A stretch of 64,000 bases of DNA from an uncultured Actinomycetes bacterium (GTDB lineage Bacteria > Actinomycetota > UBA4738 > HRBIN12). The translations under genes and the position numbers were made by a program. The stretch is from assembly GCA_963704885.1 (NCBI GenBank), contig CAVPIB010000004.1, positions 250,044-314,043 on the forward strand. Reading direction: 5' to 3'. Below the pieces are notes generated by a model. The model saw only the letters and a program-made list of their open reading frames with translations, was not told where the DNA came from and made no database searches. Positions 10,910 to 62,524 of the stretch are shown piece by piece. Numbering within the stretch: position 1 is the first letter of the stretch; the number at the start of each line of letters is the position of its first letter.

Positions 10910-11281
10910 TCAGCCCGACTCGTCCTCCAGCCCGTACTTCGTGACCAAAGAGAGGTAGTCGCGCTGATAGAAGACCTTGCACCGGATCTCGGGGTAGCGC
11001 TCACGCAGTCGGCGCACCTTGCGGTTCTTCTTGGTAACGAGCTTCTGGTTGAGCGTGGTTATCTCGATGTAGAGGTCGTACGTAGGAAGATAGAAGTCGG
11101 GCGTGAACCGCTGCAGGACGTTGCCGTTCGTGTCCCAGTCGATGTCGAACGACGTCGGCTCGTACTCCCACTCGATCTCGTAGAAGTCCAGCAACTGCGC
11201 GAATTGACGTTCGCTCGCGTGGGCGAATGGGGTGCTGTCGCTCTTGCCGAGTTCGTCGGGAGCGGCGGGCTGAGCGCTCAC
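10910..11281 (-). CDS. Hypothetical protein with PD-(D/E)XK nuclease-like motif
   Basis: FAHASERQFAQLLDFYEIEWEYEP...FTPDFYLP..DLYIEITT; GTGA overlap with the upstream MerR stop; GGAGG SD. Confidence 0.7.
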   Translation of the reverse strand: MSAQPAAPDELGKSDSTPFAHASERQFAQLLDFYEIEWEYEPTSFDIDWDTNGNVLQRFTPDFYLPTYDLYIEITTLNQKLVTKKNRKVRRLRERYPEIRCKVFYQRDYLSLVTKYGLEDESG

Positions 11282-11739
11282 GACCCTCCGGCTGCCGAAC
11301 GCCCGGTCTTCCGCGTTGCCAGGGCCCCCTCGAGGTCGTCCCACACCTTGTCCAATGCGATAGCGAACACGCCCTGCCCCTTGTTGAGGAGGTCGATCAC
11401 CGCCTCAGGCGAGTGTGCCTCGTAGACCCCCTTGCCGTCGGACATCAGCGTCACCCCGTGGGTCGGGCGGTCCATCTCTTGGAGGTATTCGATCGCCTTG
11501 CGCACGCGCTGGAGCGAGATCCCGGTATCGAGCAGGTTCTTGATGACCCGCAACGAGACCAGGTCCTGGAAGGAGTACAGGCGCTGGGTCCCCGATCCGT
11601 GGGCGTCGCGGACGGATGGGGTTACCAGATCCGTTCTGGCCCAGTAATCCAACTGGCGGTAGGTGATGCCGACTATCCGGCAGACATCCGGAACGCGATA
11701 ACCCTGATCTCCGGCGACTCGGTAGCCCTGTTCGCTCAT
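11278..11739 (-). CDS. MerR family regulator (Rv1830-like)
   Basis: GYRVPDVCRIVGITYRQLDYWART...GSGTQRLYSFQDL. Confidence 0.93.
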   Translation of the reverse strand: MSEQGYRVAGDQGYRVPDVCRIVGITYRQLDYWARTDLVTPSVRDAHGSGTQRLYSFQDLVSLRVIKNLLDTGISLQRVRKAIEYLQEMDRPTHGVTLMSDGKGVYEAHSPEAVIDLLNKGQGVFAIALDKVWDDLEGALATRKTGRSAAGGS

Positions 11740-17264: not shown

Positions 17265-17338
17265 TCGGGACGGCGGGACTTGAACCCGCGACCCCTGGTC
17301 CCCCAGACCAGTGCGCTACCAGACTGCGCCACGTCCCG
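17265..17338 (-). tRNA. tRNA-Pro(GGG), CCA not fully encoded
   Basis: CGGGACG acceptor stem, TGGCGCAG-TGGTAGCGC D arm, CTGGT-CTGGGGG-ACCAG anticodon arm, GGTTCAAGTCC T arm; TACGAT -10 at 17352-17347. Confidence 0.97.
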
Positions 17339-18726: not shown

Positions 18727-19382
18727 CGGGCGACCTCCGGTAGCCGCGTGAACACGACGGCCAGCGCGGCTTCCAGGGTCTCGCTCACGGTCTTATCGCC
18801 GGTGTCCAGGACCTCAGCACCCGGTGCCGGCTCGAACGGATTCACGACGGAGTCCCTAGCGTCGCGCTGGTGCAACGCTGACCCGACCGCGGGATCCGCC
18901 GCGCCGCGCTCTGCCGCGCGTCGCTCGATCCGCGTGTCGGCGGATGCTGTCAGGAACAGCTTCACCGGAGCGTCGGGGAACACGATCGTGCCGATGTCTC
19001 GGCCTTCGACCACCGCATCAGGAGACCCGAGCGCACGCTGCGCCCGGCGCATGAGCTCCCGGACCTGCGGATGCCTCGCGACCTGCGAAACGTGCTCTTC
19101 AACCCGATCGCTCTCCAGGGCCGACGAAGGGGGGGAACCCTCGACCTCGAGCTCGGGAGACGCACCAGCTCCCAGGCTGAACCTCAACTCTCGCGTGAGC
19201 TCCGCGAGAGCGTCGCCGTTGCCTGGATCCACCCCCGCCTCGATCGCGGCGAGCGTCAGCGCTCGATACATGACGCCCGTGTTCACGTACGGCACACGGA
19301 GTTCACGTGCGAGGCCGCGAGCGAGCGTACTCTTGCCCGATCCGGCCGAGCCGTCGATCGCTATCACGCGGAGGTCGGTCAT
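18723..19382 (-). CDS. cmk: Cytidylate kinase
   Basis: IAIDGSAGSGKST, NTGVMYRA, VEGRDIGTIVFPDA. Confidence 0.96.
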   Translation of the reverse strand: MTDLRVIAIDGSAGSGKSTLARGLARELRVPYVNTGVMYRALTLAAIEAGVDPGNGDALAELTRELRFSLGAGASPELEVEGSPPSSALESDRVEEHVSQVARHPQVRELMRRAQRALGSPDAVVEGRDIGTIVFPDAPVKLFLTASADTRIERRAAERGAADPAVGSALHQRDARDSVVNPFEPAPGAEVLDTGDKTVSETLEAALAVVFTRLPEVAR

Positions 19383-20752
19383 GACACCGGCTCCGCCGTC
19401 GCACCCAGCCCTCGGACGACAGCCAGGAACCCTGGGAACGACACATCGGCGGCCTCCATGCCCGACACCTCGCACGGTGCGTCTGCGCGAAGGGCCGCCA
19501 CCGCGAACGCCATGGCCAGGCGATGATCCCCTAGGGGATCCGCGACCCCACCTCGCAATCCTATCCCGGAGACGACCAGGTCCTGGTTCTCGACCCCCGC
19601 GTGGCCACCCAATGCCACGATCCCACGAGCGATGCCGGCCAGCCGGTCACTCTCCTTGACGCGGAGCTCCCCCACCTCCGCGAACCAGGTCTCCCCTCGG
19701 CAGTGGGCTGCAAGTAGCGCGAGGACGGGGACCTCATCGATGATCAGGGGTAGTTCGTCGGCGCCGACCTCGGTGCCTACCAGCTCGGCGTTTGGGCCGA
19801 CCCATAACTCGCCGATCGGCTCACCCAGCTCATGCCGCTCCACGGTGATCCGGGTTCTGACCCCCATCCGAGATAGGACCTGTAGGTAGTGCAGGCGACT
19901 CGGGTTGAGGCCGACCCCCGCGATCGAGAGCTCGGCGCCGGATAGAGCGGCAGCGGCCACCAGGAAGGCGGCCGATGAGGGATCCCCCGGCAGTGTGGCC
20001 GCGAAGGCCTCGTGTTCAGATCCCCCTCGAACGGAGATGGTGGAGCCCTCGACGCTCACAGGAAGGCCCAGGGCAGCGAACGCACGCTCCGTGTGATCGC
20101 GGGTGGGGGCGGGCTCGGTCACGGCGGTCGTGTCCTCGGCGCCCAAACCTGCGAACAGGATGGCGCCCTTCACCTGGGCCGAAGGAAGTGCAAGCACGCT
20201 CGCGACGCCATGAAGATGCCGGCCTTCGACCGTGATCGGTGCGTGTCCGTCGGTGGTGCGAACGACCGCACCCATCTCTCGAAGCGGTACGGCGACGCGT
20301 TCCATCGGGCGGGCGGAGAGGCTCCGGTCACCGGTCAGTGTCGACCTGAACGGCGCCGTCGCGAGCGCTCCCACCATCAACCGCATCGCAGTGCCGGAAT
20401 TGCCGCAGTCAAGATCGGTGGGAGGCTCGACCAAGCCGGACCACCCCTCACCCTCGACCTCAAGGACCTGCTCGGAGGGATCGGGGTCGTAGGGGTTCCA
20501 CGTGGAACCGTGACCCTCGGCGGCTCCCCCAACGTTCCCGGCCCAAGCCTCGAGTGCACGTCTAGCCCGGCCCGACACCTTCGCCAGACATGCGGCGGTC
20601 GACCGAACGTCGAGCGACGGTGGAAGGCCCACTAGACGGCTGGTGCCGCGAGCCGTGGCGGCCAGGATCAACCAGCGGTGCGCGATGGACTTGTCCCCGG
20701 GCACGCGCACGTTCCTCGATGTGATGGGTCCCGGCGTGACGCGAACGCGCAT
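19379..20752 (-). CDS. aroA: 3-phosphoshikimate 1-carboxyvinyltransferase (EPSP synthase) with an insertion of about 27 aa
   Basis: PGDKSIAHR, DCGNSGT, SAQVK, RDHTER, LRVKESDRL, DHRLAMAF. Confidence 0.96.
   Translation of the reverse strand: MRVRVTPGPITSRNVRVPGDKSIAHRWLILAATARGTSRLVGLPPSLDVRSTAACLAKVSGRARRALEAWAGNVGGAAEGHGSTWNPYDPDPSEQVLEVEGEGWSGLVEPPTDLDCGNSGTAMRLMVGALATAPFRSTLTGDRSLSARPMERVAVPLREMGAVVRTTDGHAPITVEGRHLHGVASVLALPSAQVKGAILFAGLGAEDTTAVTEPAPTRDHTERAFAALGLPVSVEGSTISVRGGSEHEAFAATLPGDPSSAAFLVAAAALSGAELSIAGVGLNPSRLHYLQVLSRMGVRTRITVERHELGEPIGELWVGPNAELVGTEVGADELPLIIDEVPVLALLAAHCRGETWFAEVGELRVKESDRLAGIARGIVALGGHAGVENQDLVVSGIGLRGGVADPLGDHRLAMAFAVAALRADAPCEVSGMEAADVSFPGFLAVVRGLGATAEPVS
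20494..20509. promoter_or_regulatory. parS-like ParB-binding palindrome
   Basis: Perfect 16-bp palindrome GGTTCCACGTGGAACC; the inner 14 bp match the parS core GTTCCACGTGGAAC. Confidence 0.6.
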
Positions 20753-20762
20753 CGTCAACCTC

Positions 20763-21863
20763 TCAAGCCAGGCGGACGGGATCGAAGGACCGCGACGCCA
20801 GCACGTGGAGGGCGACATCTGCTGAAAGAGCCGCGACCGTGAGATGCACCGTGCCGCGCCCGCCCTCGGGCGAGTGCACGATCTGCAGGTCCTCGATGTT
20901 CACCTGGCCCTCCGCGAGTGCCGATGTGAGCTCGGCGAGCGCGCCGGGACGGTCCGGGATCGGGACCTGGAGCACCGCCACCCCCGCCCGGATCTGCGGC
21001 TTGGCGGCCAATCTCAGGCGCGCCCGCTTGGCACTGTCGAACGTCTCCTCGATCGAGTCGGCTTGTCCCTGAAGGACCTGATCGCGGAGGTCCTGCAACC
21101 TGGCGGAGAACAGGTCGATCGCCTCGGCGATGGCCTCACGGTTGGCGAGGAGGATCTGGCTCCAGAGCGCGGGGTTGGACGAGGCCAGTCGGGTGAGGTC
21201 GCGGAACCCCCCCGCAGCCAGAAGGAGGATCTCTGGCTCGTCGGCCTCTTCGGTCGCGGCGAGCGCCATCAGGGCCGTCGAGGCCACCTGGGGCAGGTGG
21301 CTCACGAACGCCACCAACCGGTCGTGGCGAGTCGGGGACATCCGAACCGGGCGTCCGCCGATCCGCTCGATCCAGGCCTCCAGCCCCTCGATAGAGGAGG
21401 CGTCCACATCTTCGTCGGGAGTGAGCACCCACACGATGCCGTCGACCACCGAGGGCGACGCATGCTCGGGCCCCGATCGTTCGGATCCGCCCATCGGGTG
21501 GCCGCCGATGTACCGTTCCGCGGCCGCCTTCCCCTGCGTCCGTCCGACCTCGCGCACCAGGTGCCCCTTGATGCTTCCAACGTCGGTGACGATCGCCGTC
21601 GGCTCCGCCTGTAGCGCCCTAGTCACGAGCTCCGGCGTGGCCGGGATCGGGGCGCATACGACCACGATGTCGGCGTCGCGCACCGCCTCCGCGAAGGTCG
21701 GGGCGATCTGCATGTCGGTACGTTCGGCCGCACGGGCCGCGGTCTGGACGTCGGCATCCCAGCCGCTCACCCTGCACCCCACGCGCGCCGAGGCCATGGC
21801 GATCGACGTCCCCATCAGGCCGGTGCCGATGACGGCGATCCGCTCAGCGGGGGTCGAGGTCAT
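20763..21863 (-). CDS. tyrA: Prephenate dehydrogenase with C-terminal ACT domain
   Basis: GTGLMG Rossmann motif, TDVGSIK, GHPMGGSE, VSHLPQ, RDLTRLA, IPDRPGALA (ACT). Confidence 0.93.
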   Translation of the reverse strand: MTSTPAERIAVIGTGLMGTSIAMASARVGCRVSGWDADVQTAARAAERTDMQIAPTFAEAVRDADIVVVCAPIPATPELVTRALQAEPTAIVTDVGSIKGHLVREVGRTQGKAAAERYIGGHPMGGSERSGPEHASPSVVDGIVWVLTPDEDVDASSIEGLEAWIERIGGRPVRMSPTRHDRLVAFVSHLPQVASTALMALAATEEADEPEILLLAAGGFRDLTRLASSNPALWSQILLANREAIAEAIDLFSARLQDLRDQVLQGQADSIEETFDSAKRARLRLAAKPQIRAGVAVLQVPIPDRPGALAELTSALAEGQVNIEDLQIVHSPEGGRGTVHLTVAALSADVALHVLASRSFDPVRLA

Positions 21864-31684: not shown

Positions 31685-33361
<1,677 letters not shown>

Positions 33362-33400: not shown

Positions 33401-34141
33401 TCAATCCGGGAGCCTTCCCAGCCGGTCGAACCATCGCAGCGCCGACACCGCGTCGATGGGGCGGGACAGCGTCAGCGTGTCCGCCAAGACGTTGAGCGTG
33501 ACCGCCGCCAACGCCGCGACCACCAGCCACGCGCCCGTGAGCACCGCAAACAGGCCGAGCCCGATGCTGAAGCCAAGGAGGTTGGCACCGCCGTCTCCCA
33601 GCATCGCGCGCTCGCGAAGGTCGGGCCACAGAGCGAGCAGGGACCCGGCCGCCATACCTGGCAGGGTGGGTATCAGCCAGATCGGGGCAGATGCGACGCC
33701 CAGCATGGCGACGAGCCCAAACTTGAGCGCCCGGCCCGGACGCACGTCGAGCCCGTTCCAAAGGTTCGCACAGCCGGCCACGAGGATGACGCCGGCGATA
33801 CCGCCCACTCCCTTCGTTCCACCCAGGAGCGTCACCGAAACGATCGCGGCCGCGGCCACCACGACGAGCTTCGCGATGCCGGTCGTCACGCGTCCTGACA
33901 ACAGGGCCGAGAGATGGTTACGAACACCTCTGGTCGCATCCGGAGACAGGTCGTCCACGAGGCCGGCGCAGAAGACCGCTAGAGATGCGGCAGCTACTCC
34001 CCATCCTGCGCGACCAACGGCTGGGGTCGCGGTGATGGCGGCGACCGCGACGGAGGCCGCCGCGCAGGCCACCAAGAGGATCCCGAGCGTGCGAGGCACC
34101 ATGGCGCCTCGATGGTTCGCGACCGACAGCCGGATCCTCAC
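33401..34141 (-). CDS. MraY/WecA-like glycosyltransferase family 4 membrane protein
   Basis: GLVDD, NLWNGLDVRPGR, MLGDGGAN motifs; multiple TM segments. Confidence 0.8.
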   Translation of the reverse strand: MRIRLSVANHRGAMVPRTLGILLVACAAASVAVAAITATPAVGRAGWGVAAASLAVFCAGLVDDLSPDATRGVRNHLSALLSGRVTTGIAKLVVVAAAAIVSVTLLGGTKGVGGIAGVILVAGCANLWNGLDVRPGRALKFGLVAMLGVASAPIWLIPTLPGMAAGSLLALWPDLRERAMLGDGGANLLGFSIGLGLFAVLTGAWLVVAALAAVTLNVLADTLTLSRPIDAVSALRWFDRLGRLPD

Positions 34142-43349: not shown

Positions 43350-44300
43350 GTGGGGATCGTCACGTTCGTCGTCGCGCCTGGCATCACCGCTATCGACACG
43401 TTCATGGGGGGACGCGAGCGCTACACGGCCGCCTATCTGCTGAACGCGACCGAGCCCGCGCTGGTCGAGACCGGTCCCGGCACGTCCGTCGAGCCCGTGA
43501 CGCGAGCGCTCGACGCGCTCGGGATCGGGTCGGACGCGCTAGCCCACGTCGTACTCACGCACATCCACCTGGATCATGCGGGAGGCGTCGGCGCCCTCGC
43601 CGCCGCGTTCCCGCGGGCGACCATCTGGGTCCACGGACGCGGGGCACGCCACCTTGCCGAGCCGGCTCGGCTTGTCGCGAGCGCCACCCGCGTCTACGGA
43701 GCGGACCGTATGGCCACCCTGTTCGGACCCGTGGAACCCGTTCCGGCAGACCGCATCCAGGTCTTCGATGGCGGCGCGTCACTGGATCTTGGCGGGCGAT
43801 CGCTCACTGCCCTCGATACCCCGGGACACGCCTCGCATCACCTGGCGATCGTCGATTCCGCAACCGGCGTCGTCTTCACCGGCGATGCCCTCGGCATCCA
43901 CGTTCCGGCTCTGCCCATCCTCCGGCCGGCCACGCCCCCACCGGACTTCGATCTCGACCTGGCGATCGCTAGCATCGAGCGCATCCGGTCGGTCGACCCA
44001 TCGACCCTGCTCTTCGCCCACTTCGGTCCTATCGCGGACGTCGAGAGGACCTGCGACCTCGCCGTCAGGAAACTACGTACCTGGACGACGACGGTGGAGC
44101 GCGCGATGGAGCGCACCAGCGACGTCGACGAGATCGTCGAAGTGCTAGCCCGCGAGGCGGCCGCCGAGATCGTGACCGGAGCCGAAGCCCAGCTTGACCT
44201 GGATCGCCTGGAGACGCTCGCCGGGATCCGCATGAACGCGCTTGGGATCATGCGGTATCTAGCGCAGCGTGCCGAGCTGGAGCGTCGTCAGCCCAACTGA
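43350..44300 (+). CDS. Metallo-beta-lactamase fold hydrolase
   Basis: THIHLDHAGG, TPGHASHH, FTGDA, HFG; TAGACT 7 nt before GTG 43350. Confidence 0.92.
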   Translation: MGIVTFVVAPGITAIDTFMGGRERYTAAYLLNATEPALVETGPGTSVEPVTRALDALGIGSDALAHVVLTHIHLDHAGGVGALAAAFPRATIWVHGRGARHLAEPARLVASATRVYGADRMATLFGPVEPVPADRIQVFDGGASLDLGGRSLTALDTPGHASHHLAIVDSATGVVFTGDALGIHVPALPILRPATPPPDFDLDLAIASIERIRSVDPSTLLFAHFGPIADVERTCDLAVRKLRTWTTTVERAMERTSDVDEIVEVLAREAAAEIVTGAEAQLDLDRLETLAGIRMNALGIMRYLAQRAELERRQPN

Positions 44301-45040: not shown

Positions 45041-45159
45041 TTCCGGCGACGACCTACTCTCCCACCCAGTCGCCCAGGCAGTACCATCGGCGCTGGAGGG
45101 CTTAACTTCCGGGTTCGGGATGGGACCGGGTGTTTCCCCTCCGCCATAGCCACCGAAAC
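45041..45159 (-). rRNA. rrf: 5S rRNA (ends approximate)
   Basis: GTTTCGGTGGCTATGGCGGAGGGGAAACACCCGGTCCCATCCCGAACCCGGAAGTTAAG...GTAGGTCGTCGCCGGAA. Confidence 0.97.
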
Positions 45160-45247
45160 GGTGTCTCGGATCCGCTCCTCGGATCCGACGAAGTTGAGGG
45201 TGTGGCCCTCGAGCAGAGCTCGGGAACCGATAGCGAGCGCGAGCGAA

Positions 45248-48351
<3,104 letters not shown>

Positions 48352-48575
48352 TATAGATGCTCGCGCTCGCTATCGAGTTCTCAAGGTGCTCGAGGGCTCG
48401 CACCCTCAAAGCTGAACAGTGTGTCCACAGGGCGGCCCCGACGTGCAGCCCGGTCGCTCGCGAACGAGCTACTGAGGTTGGCGGCCGGAGGGCCACATGA
48501 ATAGCCAGTGAATCGACCTGGAGTCTTGCCGGGTTACCGGAGCCCGAGCGGGCTCCCCCGGAAGTGCCAAAGGCT

Positions 48576-50108
<1,533 letters not shown>

Positions 50109-50394
50109 AGATCCGAAGACCCCGAGCCCGAAGGACCGGGGGTTCGTTTCCATGTTGGAGTCGGTCGCTTCCGGATGACACTCCATGGCGACCGGTTCAG
50201 CTGATCCCGCCCGATTGTCCGGACGGTTTCAGTACTACTCGTCTGCTGTACGTCGAAGGCACGGCGGAACCGCGCCTCCCAGCTGACGGGTTGGCACTGG
50301 CTTTTGACACACTGTTCAGTTCTCAAGGTGCGAGGAGACGCGGAGTCCCGCCTTGAAGTGCAGGAAGCACTCTGGCGGGGCGCGCCGGATAGGT

Positions 50395-60645: not shown

Positions 60646-62076
60646 TCAGCCTGCCTGCGGTAGAGGCAGCTCGAGATGGAACGACAGTCGCCCCCCGTCG
60701 ACCTCCCCCCACGCGCGCCCTCCCTGTGCCCGCGCGACCCCTCGGGCGACGAACAGGCCTATCTTGCTGCCCGATCCCGTCCCCGGGCGACGCGCCACGA
60801 ACAGCCCCTCCACGTCGTCGGGCGTGAGGTCGGTCCCGTCGCGCCAGACGCGGAGCCGCAGGACGTCGCCATCGCGCTCCCCGTCGATCGCGATCGGCCC
60901 CTCGCGTCCCCACCACACGAGCGCCTCAACGAACGAGAGCAGCGCCGACTTCAGCCGCGCGGGATCCACCACCAACGACCCGCCGGTTCCCAGCCACCGG
61001 ATCTCCGGGTGCTCGGGGTCTCGACGCTGCGACTCGATGATGGTCTCGGCGAGGTCGGAGAGTTCGACCCGCTCGGGGAACATCTCCAGCGTGCCGGCCG
61101 CCACCCGGCCCGCATCGACCAGTAACCGGAGGATCGTGTCCATCCGATCAGCATCGAACACGATACCCTGCAGCATCAGCGAACGCTGCTCGGGGGTCAT
61201 CGACTCCCATCGCTTCTCCAGGGCGTACCCGAACCCCTTCATGGCGGTCAGCGGCGAACGGATATCGTGAGCGGCCGCCGCGACGATGGTCTCTAGCGGG
61301 ACGGCGCCGCTGCGGTGTTGGCGTGCCCATTCGAACAGACACACAGTGGCGGCGGCCGCGAGGTTCAACGACTCGGCCTTACCGCGGTGTGGGATGCGAA
61401 CGGTCCCGTCGACGGCCTTCAAGACCTCGGACGGCAGTCCATGAGCCTCGTTGCCGAAGACGAGGGCCAAGGGGCCACCCAGATCTGTTGCGTACAGATC
61501 GTCGGCTCCCCTGGCATCCATCGCGAGGATCCGCCGACCTTGCTCATGAGCCAGCTCCAGCACCTCCAGGGTGGGAACGGCCCTAGCGATCGGCAGATGG
61601 AAGACGGATCCGGCCGAGGAACGCACCGTCTTGGGGTTGTAGACGTCTACCGAGCTCGAGGTGAAAACGATCCCGGACGCGCCGGCGGCGTCGCAGGAGC
61701 GCAGGACCGTCCCCGCGTTGCCCGGGTCACGCACCTCGTGGAGGACAACGAGACAACCGTCGGTCGGCAGAGTCTCCAAGGCGGTGTCGACGAATGCCGC
61801 GATCCCGACGATCCCTTGAGGCGTTACCGTCGACGTCAGCTTGGCCATGACGTCGGCACTGACCGCGTGGACCTCTACTCCTTGTTGCCGCGCCCGGATA
61901 GCGAGGGGATCCGACGCGTCGCCGACGAAGAGCTCTCTGAGATGGCCGGGTTGTTCGAGCGCCTCGCCGACGCCCTGAGCGCCCTCGACCAGGAAGCGGC
62001 GATCCTCCTCGCGGAACGCACGCTTCTTCAGGCGAACGGCGGCGGCGACCTTCGGGTTCTTTGCGGACGTCAGCAC
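60646..62076 (-). CDS. TrmH/SpoU RNA methyltransferase fused to HisKA + degenerate HATPase domain
   Basis: VRDPGNAGTVLRS, VFGNEAHGL, ESLNLAAAA; then AHDIRSPLTAMKGF (H box) and GSKIGLFVARG (G2-like), with no stop between them. Confidence 0.88.
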   Translation of the reverse strand: MLTSAKNPKVAAAVRLKKRAFREEDRRFLVEGAQGVGEALEQPGHLRELFVGDASDPLAIRARQQGVEVHAVSADVMAKLTSTVTPQGIVGIAAFVDTALETLPTDGCLVVLHEVRDPGNAGTVLRSCDAAGASGIVFTSSSVDVYNPKTVRSSAGSVFHLPIARAVPTLEVLELAHEQGRRILAMDARGADDLYATDLGGPLALVFGNEAHGLPSEVLKAVDGTVRIPHRGKAESLNLAAAATVCLFEWARQHRSGAVPLETIVAAAAHDIRSPLTAMKGFGYALEKRWESMTPEQRSLMLQGIVFDADRMDTILRLLVDAGRVAAGTLEMFPERVELSDLAETIIESQRRDPEHPEIRWLGTGGSLVVDPARLKSALLSFVEALVWWGREGPIAIDGERDGDVLRLRVWRDGTDLTPDDVEGLFVARRPGTGSGSKIGLFVARGVARAQGGRAWGEVDGGRLSFHLELPLPQAG

Positions 62077-62158
62077 GGCATCCCATCGGGCTCGAGACGC
62101 CCGCAGTCTACGGCTGCAGCCGAGATGGAGGTGTGGGAAGCCCCGCCCGCGGGCGAGA

Positions 62159-62524
62159 TCAGCCGGCCGCTGGAAGGGCGGACTTGGCCGTTTCGACCAG
62201 CGAGGCGAACGCTGTCGGATCATTGACTGCGAGATCGGCGAGGATCTTCCGGTCCACCTCGACCCCTGCGACCTTCAGCCCGTTCATGAACCGCGAGTAC
62301 GGGATCCCGTGCGGGCGAACCGCCGCGTTGATCCGGGCGATCCACAGTCTGCGGAACTGCGCCTTGCGGTCGCGTCGATCACGATAGGCGTAGTTGCCGG
62401 AGTGCATGACCTGTTCCTTGGCCACGCGGTAGCGCGTCCGACGACTCCCCGTGTAGCCCTTCGCTTTGGCCAGGACCTCACGGCGTTTCTTCTTCGCATG
62501 GACCGATCGTTTCACCCGTGCCAT
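62159..62524 (-). CDS. rplT: 50S ribosomal protein L20
   Basis: [27 protein letters not shown]. Confidence 0.98.

Follow-up and report, generated by a model that had tools for sequence, protein, structure and literature searches.

A conserved parS-like palindrome in a lineage-specific insertion of AroA from a clade of uncultured Actinomycetota

We examined a 64-kb stretch of DNA (called the window throughout), which has a G+C content of 67% and carries nearly all of its genes on the minus strand. The neighbourhood follows the order infC-pheST-tyrS-rrn-recN-pyrG-xerD-scpAB-aroA-cmk-der, and the window genes can be set out in these groups:

infC, rplT, pheS, pheT, argF, PolX and tyrS
recN, nadK, pyrG, ald, xerD, deoB, deoA and trpS
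scpA, scpB, rluB, a type I chorismate mutase gene, tyrA, aroA, cmk, der and pgsA

The features described here lie in aroA:

19379-20752, minus strand: aroA, the host gene, class II EPSP synthase of 457 aa (assigned from PF00275, 3RMT, homolog lengths and the AlphaFold2 model)
20477-20566, minus strand: lineage-specific in-frame insertion, residues 63-92 (lacking a counterpart in solved EPSPS; AlphaFold2 model)
20555-20566, minus strand: block A, codons 63-66, a second hot spot of synonymous constraint (from codon counts)
20494-20509, no strand assigned: parS-like palindrome GGTTCCACGTGGAACC, a perfect 16-bp palindrome within the aroA insertion
20495-20508: conserved 14-bp core GTTCCACGTGGAAC of the parS-like palindrome, exact in the window and in orthologous loci
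20450-20464, minus strand: block C, codons 97-101 (CTT GAG GTC GAG GGT), at the far edge of the insertion, where the excess of codon conservation is weaker

The aroA product matched PF00275 in Pfam with E = 4e-84, as a full-length EPSP_synthase domain with the catalytic core, and the PDB entry 3RMT at 1e-88. The AlphaFold2 model (built on a 33-sequence alignment) was a confident EPSPS fold, with a mean pLDDT of 91 and a pTM of 0.90. The closest AroA proteins came from MAGs labelled Actinomycetota or Actinomycetes. The mechanically called ORF starts at an ATG at 20818 and overlaps the end of tyrA. Among the 120 homologs listed, however, AroA is mostly 455-457 aa long and starts with MRVRV (some calls are truncated or longer). 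Since the homologs are about 457 aa long and begin in this way, the true start is, judging from their sequences, the MRVRV at 20752, which lies 11 nt past the tyrA stop.

In this protein, 42 residues separate STAACL from VEGEG. Residues 63-92 were unmatched in the solved class II EPSPS structures 3RMT and 3TR1, whose chains have about 3 residues there, so the insertion measures 27-30 residues, or about 27 net relative to these structures. It is kept in all full-length members among the 120 closest homologs (60-84% identity), and is absent or shorter in the loci L019, L020, L022, L078, L099 and L103. The AlphaFold2 model predicts a helix at residues 64-79, followed by a low-confidence loop at 78-92 with pLDDT below 50. 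Within this loop segment falls the peptide G-S-T-W-N, which is nearly invariant across the 120 closest homologs while the residues on both of its sides drift freely. The model thus leaves the best-conserved peptide in the loop without a structural role.

The palindrome is what encodes this peptide. The first-pass annotation had described a 27-aa insertion in AroA holding a perfect palindrome at 20494-20509 that is read as GSTWN, had called it the only such site in the window, and had likened it to parS. Each of these statements held up on analysis. In the aroA frame the palindrome reads GGT TCC ACG TGG AAC C, that is G82-S83-T84-W85-N86. It is the sole exact match in the window to GTTNCACGTGNAAC (0 of 100 shuffles of the window gave any match), and also the sole site within two mismatches of TGTTNCACGTGNAACA. 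The core is identical to those of the published sites of Pseudomonas aeruginosa and Myxococcus xanthus, which we compare below.

A perfect 16-bp palindrome is by itself not rare, as the window has 5 of them against about 2.2 expected; it is the match to parS, together with the conservation, that exceeds chance. Across the 1.92 Mb of sequence that we fetched, 38 sites were within one mismatch of the core, and 36 of these 38 were at the same position of aroA. Besides the window, 29 of the orthologous loci that we fetched, some near-duplicates included, had the exact core. No second parS-like site was found in the window or in any orthologous locus, and the aroA site is thus solitary. A control was offered by GATCCCCTAGGGGATC at 19525-19540, which is also a perfect 16-bp palindrome in aroA (read as D-P-L-G-D, with the rare codon CTA). 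This control palindrome was conserved in none of the orthologs. The remaining perfect 16-bp palindromes are GGCTGGGCGCCCAGCC and CCGGCCGATCGGCCGG, at 32007-32022 and 32657-32672 (both in pyrG), and GCCGAGCCGGCTCGGC at 43656-43671.

Against the consensus TGTTNCACGTGNAACA, the aroA site forms the inverted repeat with a core match of 14/14, the differences being limited to positions 1 and 16 at its outer ends, which are weakly conserved. In P. aeruginosa, parS1 and parS4 have the sequence TGTTCCACGTGGAACC, while parS2 and parS3 have TGTTCCACGTGGAACA; with the M. xanthus consensus TGTTCCACGTGGAACG, ParB gives a shift in EMSA. According to a review, which gives the same consensus for these two species, the half-sites GTTCCAC and GTTTCAC are likewise bound by several ParBs, that of P. 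aeruginosa among them. The 14-bp core of the aroA site is identical to that of P. aeruginosa parS1-4 (TGTTCCACGTGGAAC[A/C]) and of M. xanthus TGTTCCACGTGGAACG, and 15 of its 16 bases match parS1/parS4, both being palindromes of two GTTCCAC half-sites. The P. aeruginosa and M. xanthus sites differ from it in being bound by ParB and in clustering near oriC and parAB, whereas the aroA site is solitary, is known from its sequence, and has no oriC or parAB in reach of the scanned region. A literature search found no paper that links parS to aroA. Other motifs were compared with the palindrome using their consensus sequences: a DnaA box was mismatched at 3 of its 8 specified positions, dif, NBS and matS were unrelated, and HAIR was a poor fit.

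Intragenic parS is already known as a kind; in Bacillus subtilis, for instance, parS lies inside spo0J. In P. aeruginosa, 9 of the 10 parS sites are intragenic, and in the actinobacterium Corynebacterium glutamicum parS1 is inside trpCF. As in these P. aeruginosa and C. glutamicum sites, the sequence in aroA is both protein code and candidate DNA signal. It differs from other intragenic parS in three respects: it sits in a lineage-specific insertion, in a loop predicted to be disordered; its translation is the sole strongly conserved peptide of that loop; and its orthologous position is kept down to about 52% protein identity.

We further estimated the constraint on silent sites using orthologous DNA from one scan of species-representative genomes and one of metagenome contigs. 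After removal of near-duplicates, the codon set held 38 insertion-bearing orthologs with 52-84% protein identity. The identity at four-fold third positions averaged 0.42 (first 19 orthologs), which is close to the value predicted from base composition alone, and silent sites are therefore near saturation. The palindrome codons, in contrast, were fixed in the non-redundant orthologs: GGT in 30/31, TCC in 31/31 and ACG in 38/38, while their usage is 0.17 (Gly), 0.26 (Ser) and 0.51 (Thr), respectively. A scan of the whole gene in five-codon windows showed that excess synonymous identity was highest at codons 80-86, with a value of 0.52 (windows starting at codons 80-82 scored 0.51-0.52) compared to a gene mean of 0.06 and an sd of 0.13.

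The few changes in the palindrome are also informative. The Gly to Arg replacement seen in orthologs is GGT to CGT, which alters position 1 of the palindrome alone. The Ser to Phe replacement is TCC to TTC; it falls at the N position of the consensus and turns GTTCCAC into the canonical half-site GTTTCAC. In these sequences, the changes in the palindrome follow the parS consensus and not the protein. Sequence maintenance independent of coding needs is a mark of parS, and was observed here as fixed synonymous positions in 30-38 orthologs. Since the letters of the palindrome are identical while adjacent silent positions are randomised, it is the DNA rather than the protein that is selected, and purifying selection at the nucleotide level on the 14-bp core is near certain. 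The GSTWN peptide is therefore a passenger in a tolerant loop. The earlier proposal of dual coding, which predicted silent sites conserved in the palindrome amid drifting flanks, is upheld by these counts: the flanks do drift, and the selected object is the DNA sequence and not the peptide.

The states of the site across the orthologs are listed below.

Exact core: the window's group and the group of L011-L014, L017, L097, L098 and L100
Left half and central CG kept (GTTYCACG), with the right half GCGAAC, ACGAAC, TTCAAC, TCCAAC, TGGGAC or TGGGAT: several intermediate lineages
Site lost: L093
parS-like site absent, the insertion being missing, shorter or different: L022, L078, L099 and L103

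The clade that carries the site is one deep group of uncultured Actinomycetota. On a rough neighbour-joining tree of the orthologs, calculated with the insertion masked, the exact core occurs in two groups with a deep split between them. In several lineages the left half-site has remained fixed but the right one has decayed, and the natural degenerate variants include GTTCCACGGCGAAC and GTTTCACGTTCAAC. The left-half variants are exactly GTTCCAC and GTTTCAC, as in half-parS sites, and are kept where the right half has decayed. Half-parS sites, however, number in the hundreds per genome and positional conservation is not known for them, unlike for the aroA site. To judge from the sequences, the decay of the right half fits half-site binding but would also fit a non-palindromic recognition element.

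The strongest silent-site constraint besides the palindrome was at block A, which was absent from the first-pass annotation. Block A lies about 19 codons (57 nt) upstream of the palindrome and is about equally strongly constrained; together with codons 80-86 it gives the top five-codon windows of excess synonymous identity, and L001-L018 and L081-L117 have it at the equivalent place. Across the clade its consensus reads GCT CGA CCT GCA (duplex sequence GCTCGACCTGCACTCGAG), in which all four codons are rare, and the window has a diverged form, GCT AGA CGT GCA. In the orthologs we counted GCT in 29/29, CGA in 30/32 and CCT in 28/29. The third positions T, A and T are fixed despite changes of residue (A/S/G/V, R/G/E and P/A/D/G/R). 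As block A is retained in L093, where the parS-like site is lost, the two elements seem to be independent. Block C showed CTT in 19/33 (usage 0.08) and GGT in 26/32 (usage 0.17).

The 8-mer CTCGACCT and its complement were enriched 17-fold in the insertion (about 20440-20590, in 38 orthologs) relative to the surrounding loci. Its copies are at non-homologous positions and in both orientations, with tandem CTCGACC in L011-L017, and in the L015 group copies of this type form an 18-bp perfect palindrome, CTCGACCTCGAGGTCGAG. We also considered a frame-shifted duplication, since the LDVRST codons upstream, read in a different frame, are similar to block A. This origin fails to explain the conservation of block A, because the upstream copy is unconstrained at silent sites. 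The 12-mer of the block A consensus, GCTCGACCTGCA, is complementary with one mismatch to 16S rRNA at about nt 56-67 (UGCAAGUCGAGC; 50043-50054). The complementarity is probably a coincidence, as a rough estimate puts the chance of it in the rRNA operon at about 2%.

What, then, is the palindrome? The best reading, and one that the sequence makes fairly probable, is that it is a candidate chromosomal parS site at which ParB loads. A site for ParB nucleation and loading in a tolerant loop is the best-supported mechanism because the core matches parS sites known to be bound and because there are intragenic precedents. A parS-type site would, on this reading, have become fixed in one deep clade of uncultured Actinomycetota, within a surface loop of AroA that is disordered. 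A dimer of the clade's ParB would recognise the two GTTCCAC half-sites, and ParB-CTP would close as a clamp and then spread. Through ParB, ParA and/or SMC-ScpAB would act on the aroA locus. Lineages with GTTYCACG, which keep the left half and the central CG, would retain a weaker binding of the half-parS type. Some observations count against the parS reading: block A, at a distance of 57 nt, is without a role in known parS function, and the site is solitary, with no origin genes among the scanned ORFs.

These same observations lend something to the view that the palindrome only looks like parS and is bound through GTTYCACG by another sequence-specific DNA-binding protein, be it a transcription factor, a nucleoid-associated protein or a paralogue of ParB. 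Selection at the nucleotide level is compatible with any binding partner, and the full dyad is less well conserved than its left half and central CG. The locus shows no visible sign of lying near the origin, the site has no second copy, and the nearby block A suggests a composite element. For such a protein, however, a 14/14 match to experimentally bound parS cores, obtained in 0 of 100 shuffles, would be a remarkable coincidence, and no other known motif that we considered fits as well. An operator located 1.1 kb inside a housekeeping ORF would also have no obvious target. We regard this alternative as unlikely, though deserving of attention.

The selected object could instead be a hairpin in the aroA mRNA (GGUUCC-ACGU-GGAACC), possibly enlarged by blocks A and C, which would act in stability, processing or ribosome pausing. 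The palindrome RNA could form a 6-bp stem with an ACGU loop. One-sided changes C to U, A to G and C to U (in L006, L018 and L113, which are one lineage) keep G-U pairs on the sense strand, and the constrained codons cluster in about 120 nt. Block A (CTCGACCT) is complementary to block C (AGGTCGAG), and some lineages have extra GGTCGAG copies. The changes in block A are, however, uncompensated in block C, and one group has direct copies only, so a long stem between the two blocks was rejected. RNAalifold (16 orthologs) gave -6.1 kcal/mol with a covariation term of -0.06, and predicted only a 4-bp outer stem between block A and block C. Double-sided changes occurred at the outermost pair alone and were no different from shuffles. 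Of 36 sequences, 9 and 4 had the inner pairs disrupted, yet the synonymous positions of the left arm were kept. The bases of the would-be loop are invariant, including the central G of ACG, which is at the centre of CACGTG. The window region folded no better than shuffles (z = +0.90), and there was no Rfam match even at E = 10. Thus per-sequence MFE folds, RNAalifold, pair counts, the shuffle z-score and Rfam all gave no support to a conserved RNA structure, and we consider the hairpin distinctly unlikely.

It is very improbable that the conservation stems from protein-level selection on GSTWN, from an overlapping reading frame or from chance, and the codon counts have largely refuted this reading. 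In its favour, the GSTWN peptide hardly varies, the GC-rich aroA contains long antisense and shifted ORFs, and the +1 frame of block A reads a conservative L/V-D/E-L/V. Peptide selection, however, cannot fix GGT, TCC and ACG in 30-38 sequences whose silent sites are saturated, and AlphaFold2 finds GSTWN unstructured. Stop codons interrupt the antisense frame both in the window and in L018. In at least 7 lineages the +1 frame meets stops a short way upstream of block A, and this frame has no conserved start. The constraint is confined to two short blocks and is not ORF-wide.

The candidate parS site may also be compared with the Rickettsia palindromic elements (RPEs), selfish repeats of about 100-150 bp present in many copies, which Ogata et al. 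reportedly described in 2000 as in-frame insertions in protein genes. As with RPEs, the palindromic DNA of aroA is translated as part of a peptide inserted in frame where the surface of a housekeeping protein tolerates it; unlike RPEs, the aroA element is single-copy in each examined locus and under purifying selection. A selfish repeat of the RPE kind was ruled out, since there is one copy per locus (the 64-kb window and about 544 kb of clade DNA).

As to the position on the chromosome, no dnaA, parA or parB was found among the Pfam-scanned ORFs of the window, which extend 20 kb to one side of the site and 43 kb to the other. A search for ParB motifs, run on the window and on every fetched locus, gave no hit in the actinobacterial loci within 10 kb on either side of aroA; the sole ParB was in L050, an unrelated Anaerolineae locus. 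The total GC skew of the window tracks gene orientation and the GC3 skew is noise, and these place neither ori nor ter. Functional parS sites usually form clusters close to oriC and parAB, and the block from infC to der is far from oriC in Mycobacterium, Corynebacterium and Streptomyces. If the locus were far from oriC, aroA would hold a conserved parS distal to the origin, and this would call for an explanation, because ectopic parS sites are known to perturb segregation and to load SMC.

A bolder version of the parS reading, which we put forward only tentatively and think doubtful, is that the aroA site serves as the principal centromere of the clade, or else as a conserved and solitary place of ParB/SMC loading away from the origin, with the AroA loop retained to house it, and that it forms with block A a composite cis-element that organises this region of the chromosome. 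The site is 3-9 kb from scpA-scpB and xerD. If this were true, the sequence of a protein would have been shaped over the long term by a signal of chromosome architecture.

What is new here, relative to intragenic parS in general, is the clade-wide fixation in a lineage-specific protein loop, the apparent isolation from origin genes, and the companion block A. If ParB binds, the locus would be an exceptionally clear example from nature of protein sequence dictated by a DNA segregation signal, and the sole invariant peptide of a disordered enzyme loop would be a translated centromere site. A single 16-bp site would also offer a tractable handle on chromosome organisation in an uncultured actinobacterial clade. 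More generally, scans for silent-site conservation can reveal chromosome-architecture signals that are hidden in genes.

Some further observations were made in the window. A complete rRNA operon (16S-23S-5S) is at 45041-50109 on the minus strand, 25 kb from the site, and its 23S gene exceeds the Rfam model in length by about 180 nt. A tRNA gene lies just downstream of der (17265-17338, minus strand). Two ORFs on the minus strand, at 33401-34141 (246 aa) and 10910-11344 (144 aa), have coding-like GC3 and no Pfam match. At 60646-62223 on the minus strand, one ORF of 525 aa encodes both a SpoU/TrmH-type rRNA methyltransferase (residues 56-297) and the domains HisKA and HATPase_c (312-522), and this is either an unusual fusion of a methyltransferase and a histidine kinase or two genes merged through an assembly error.
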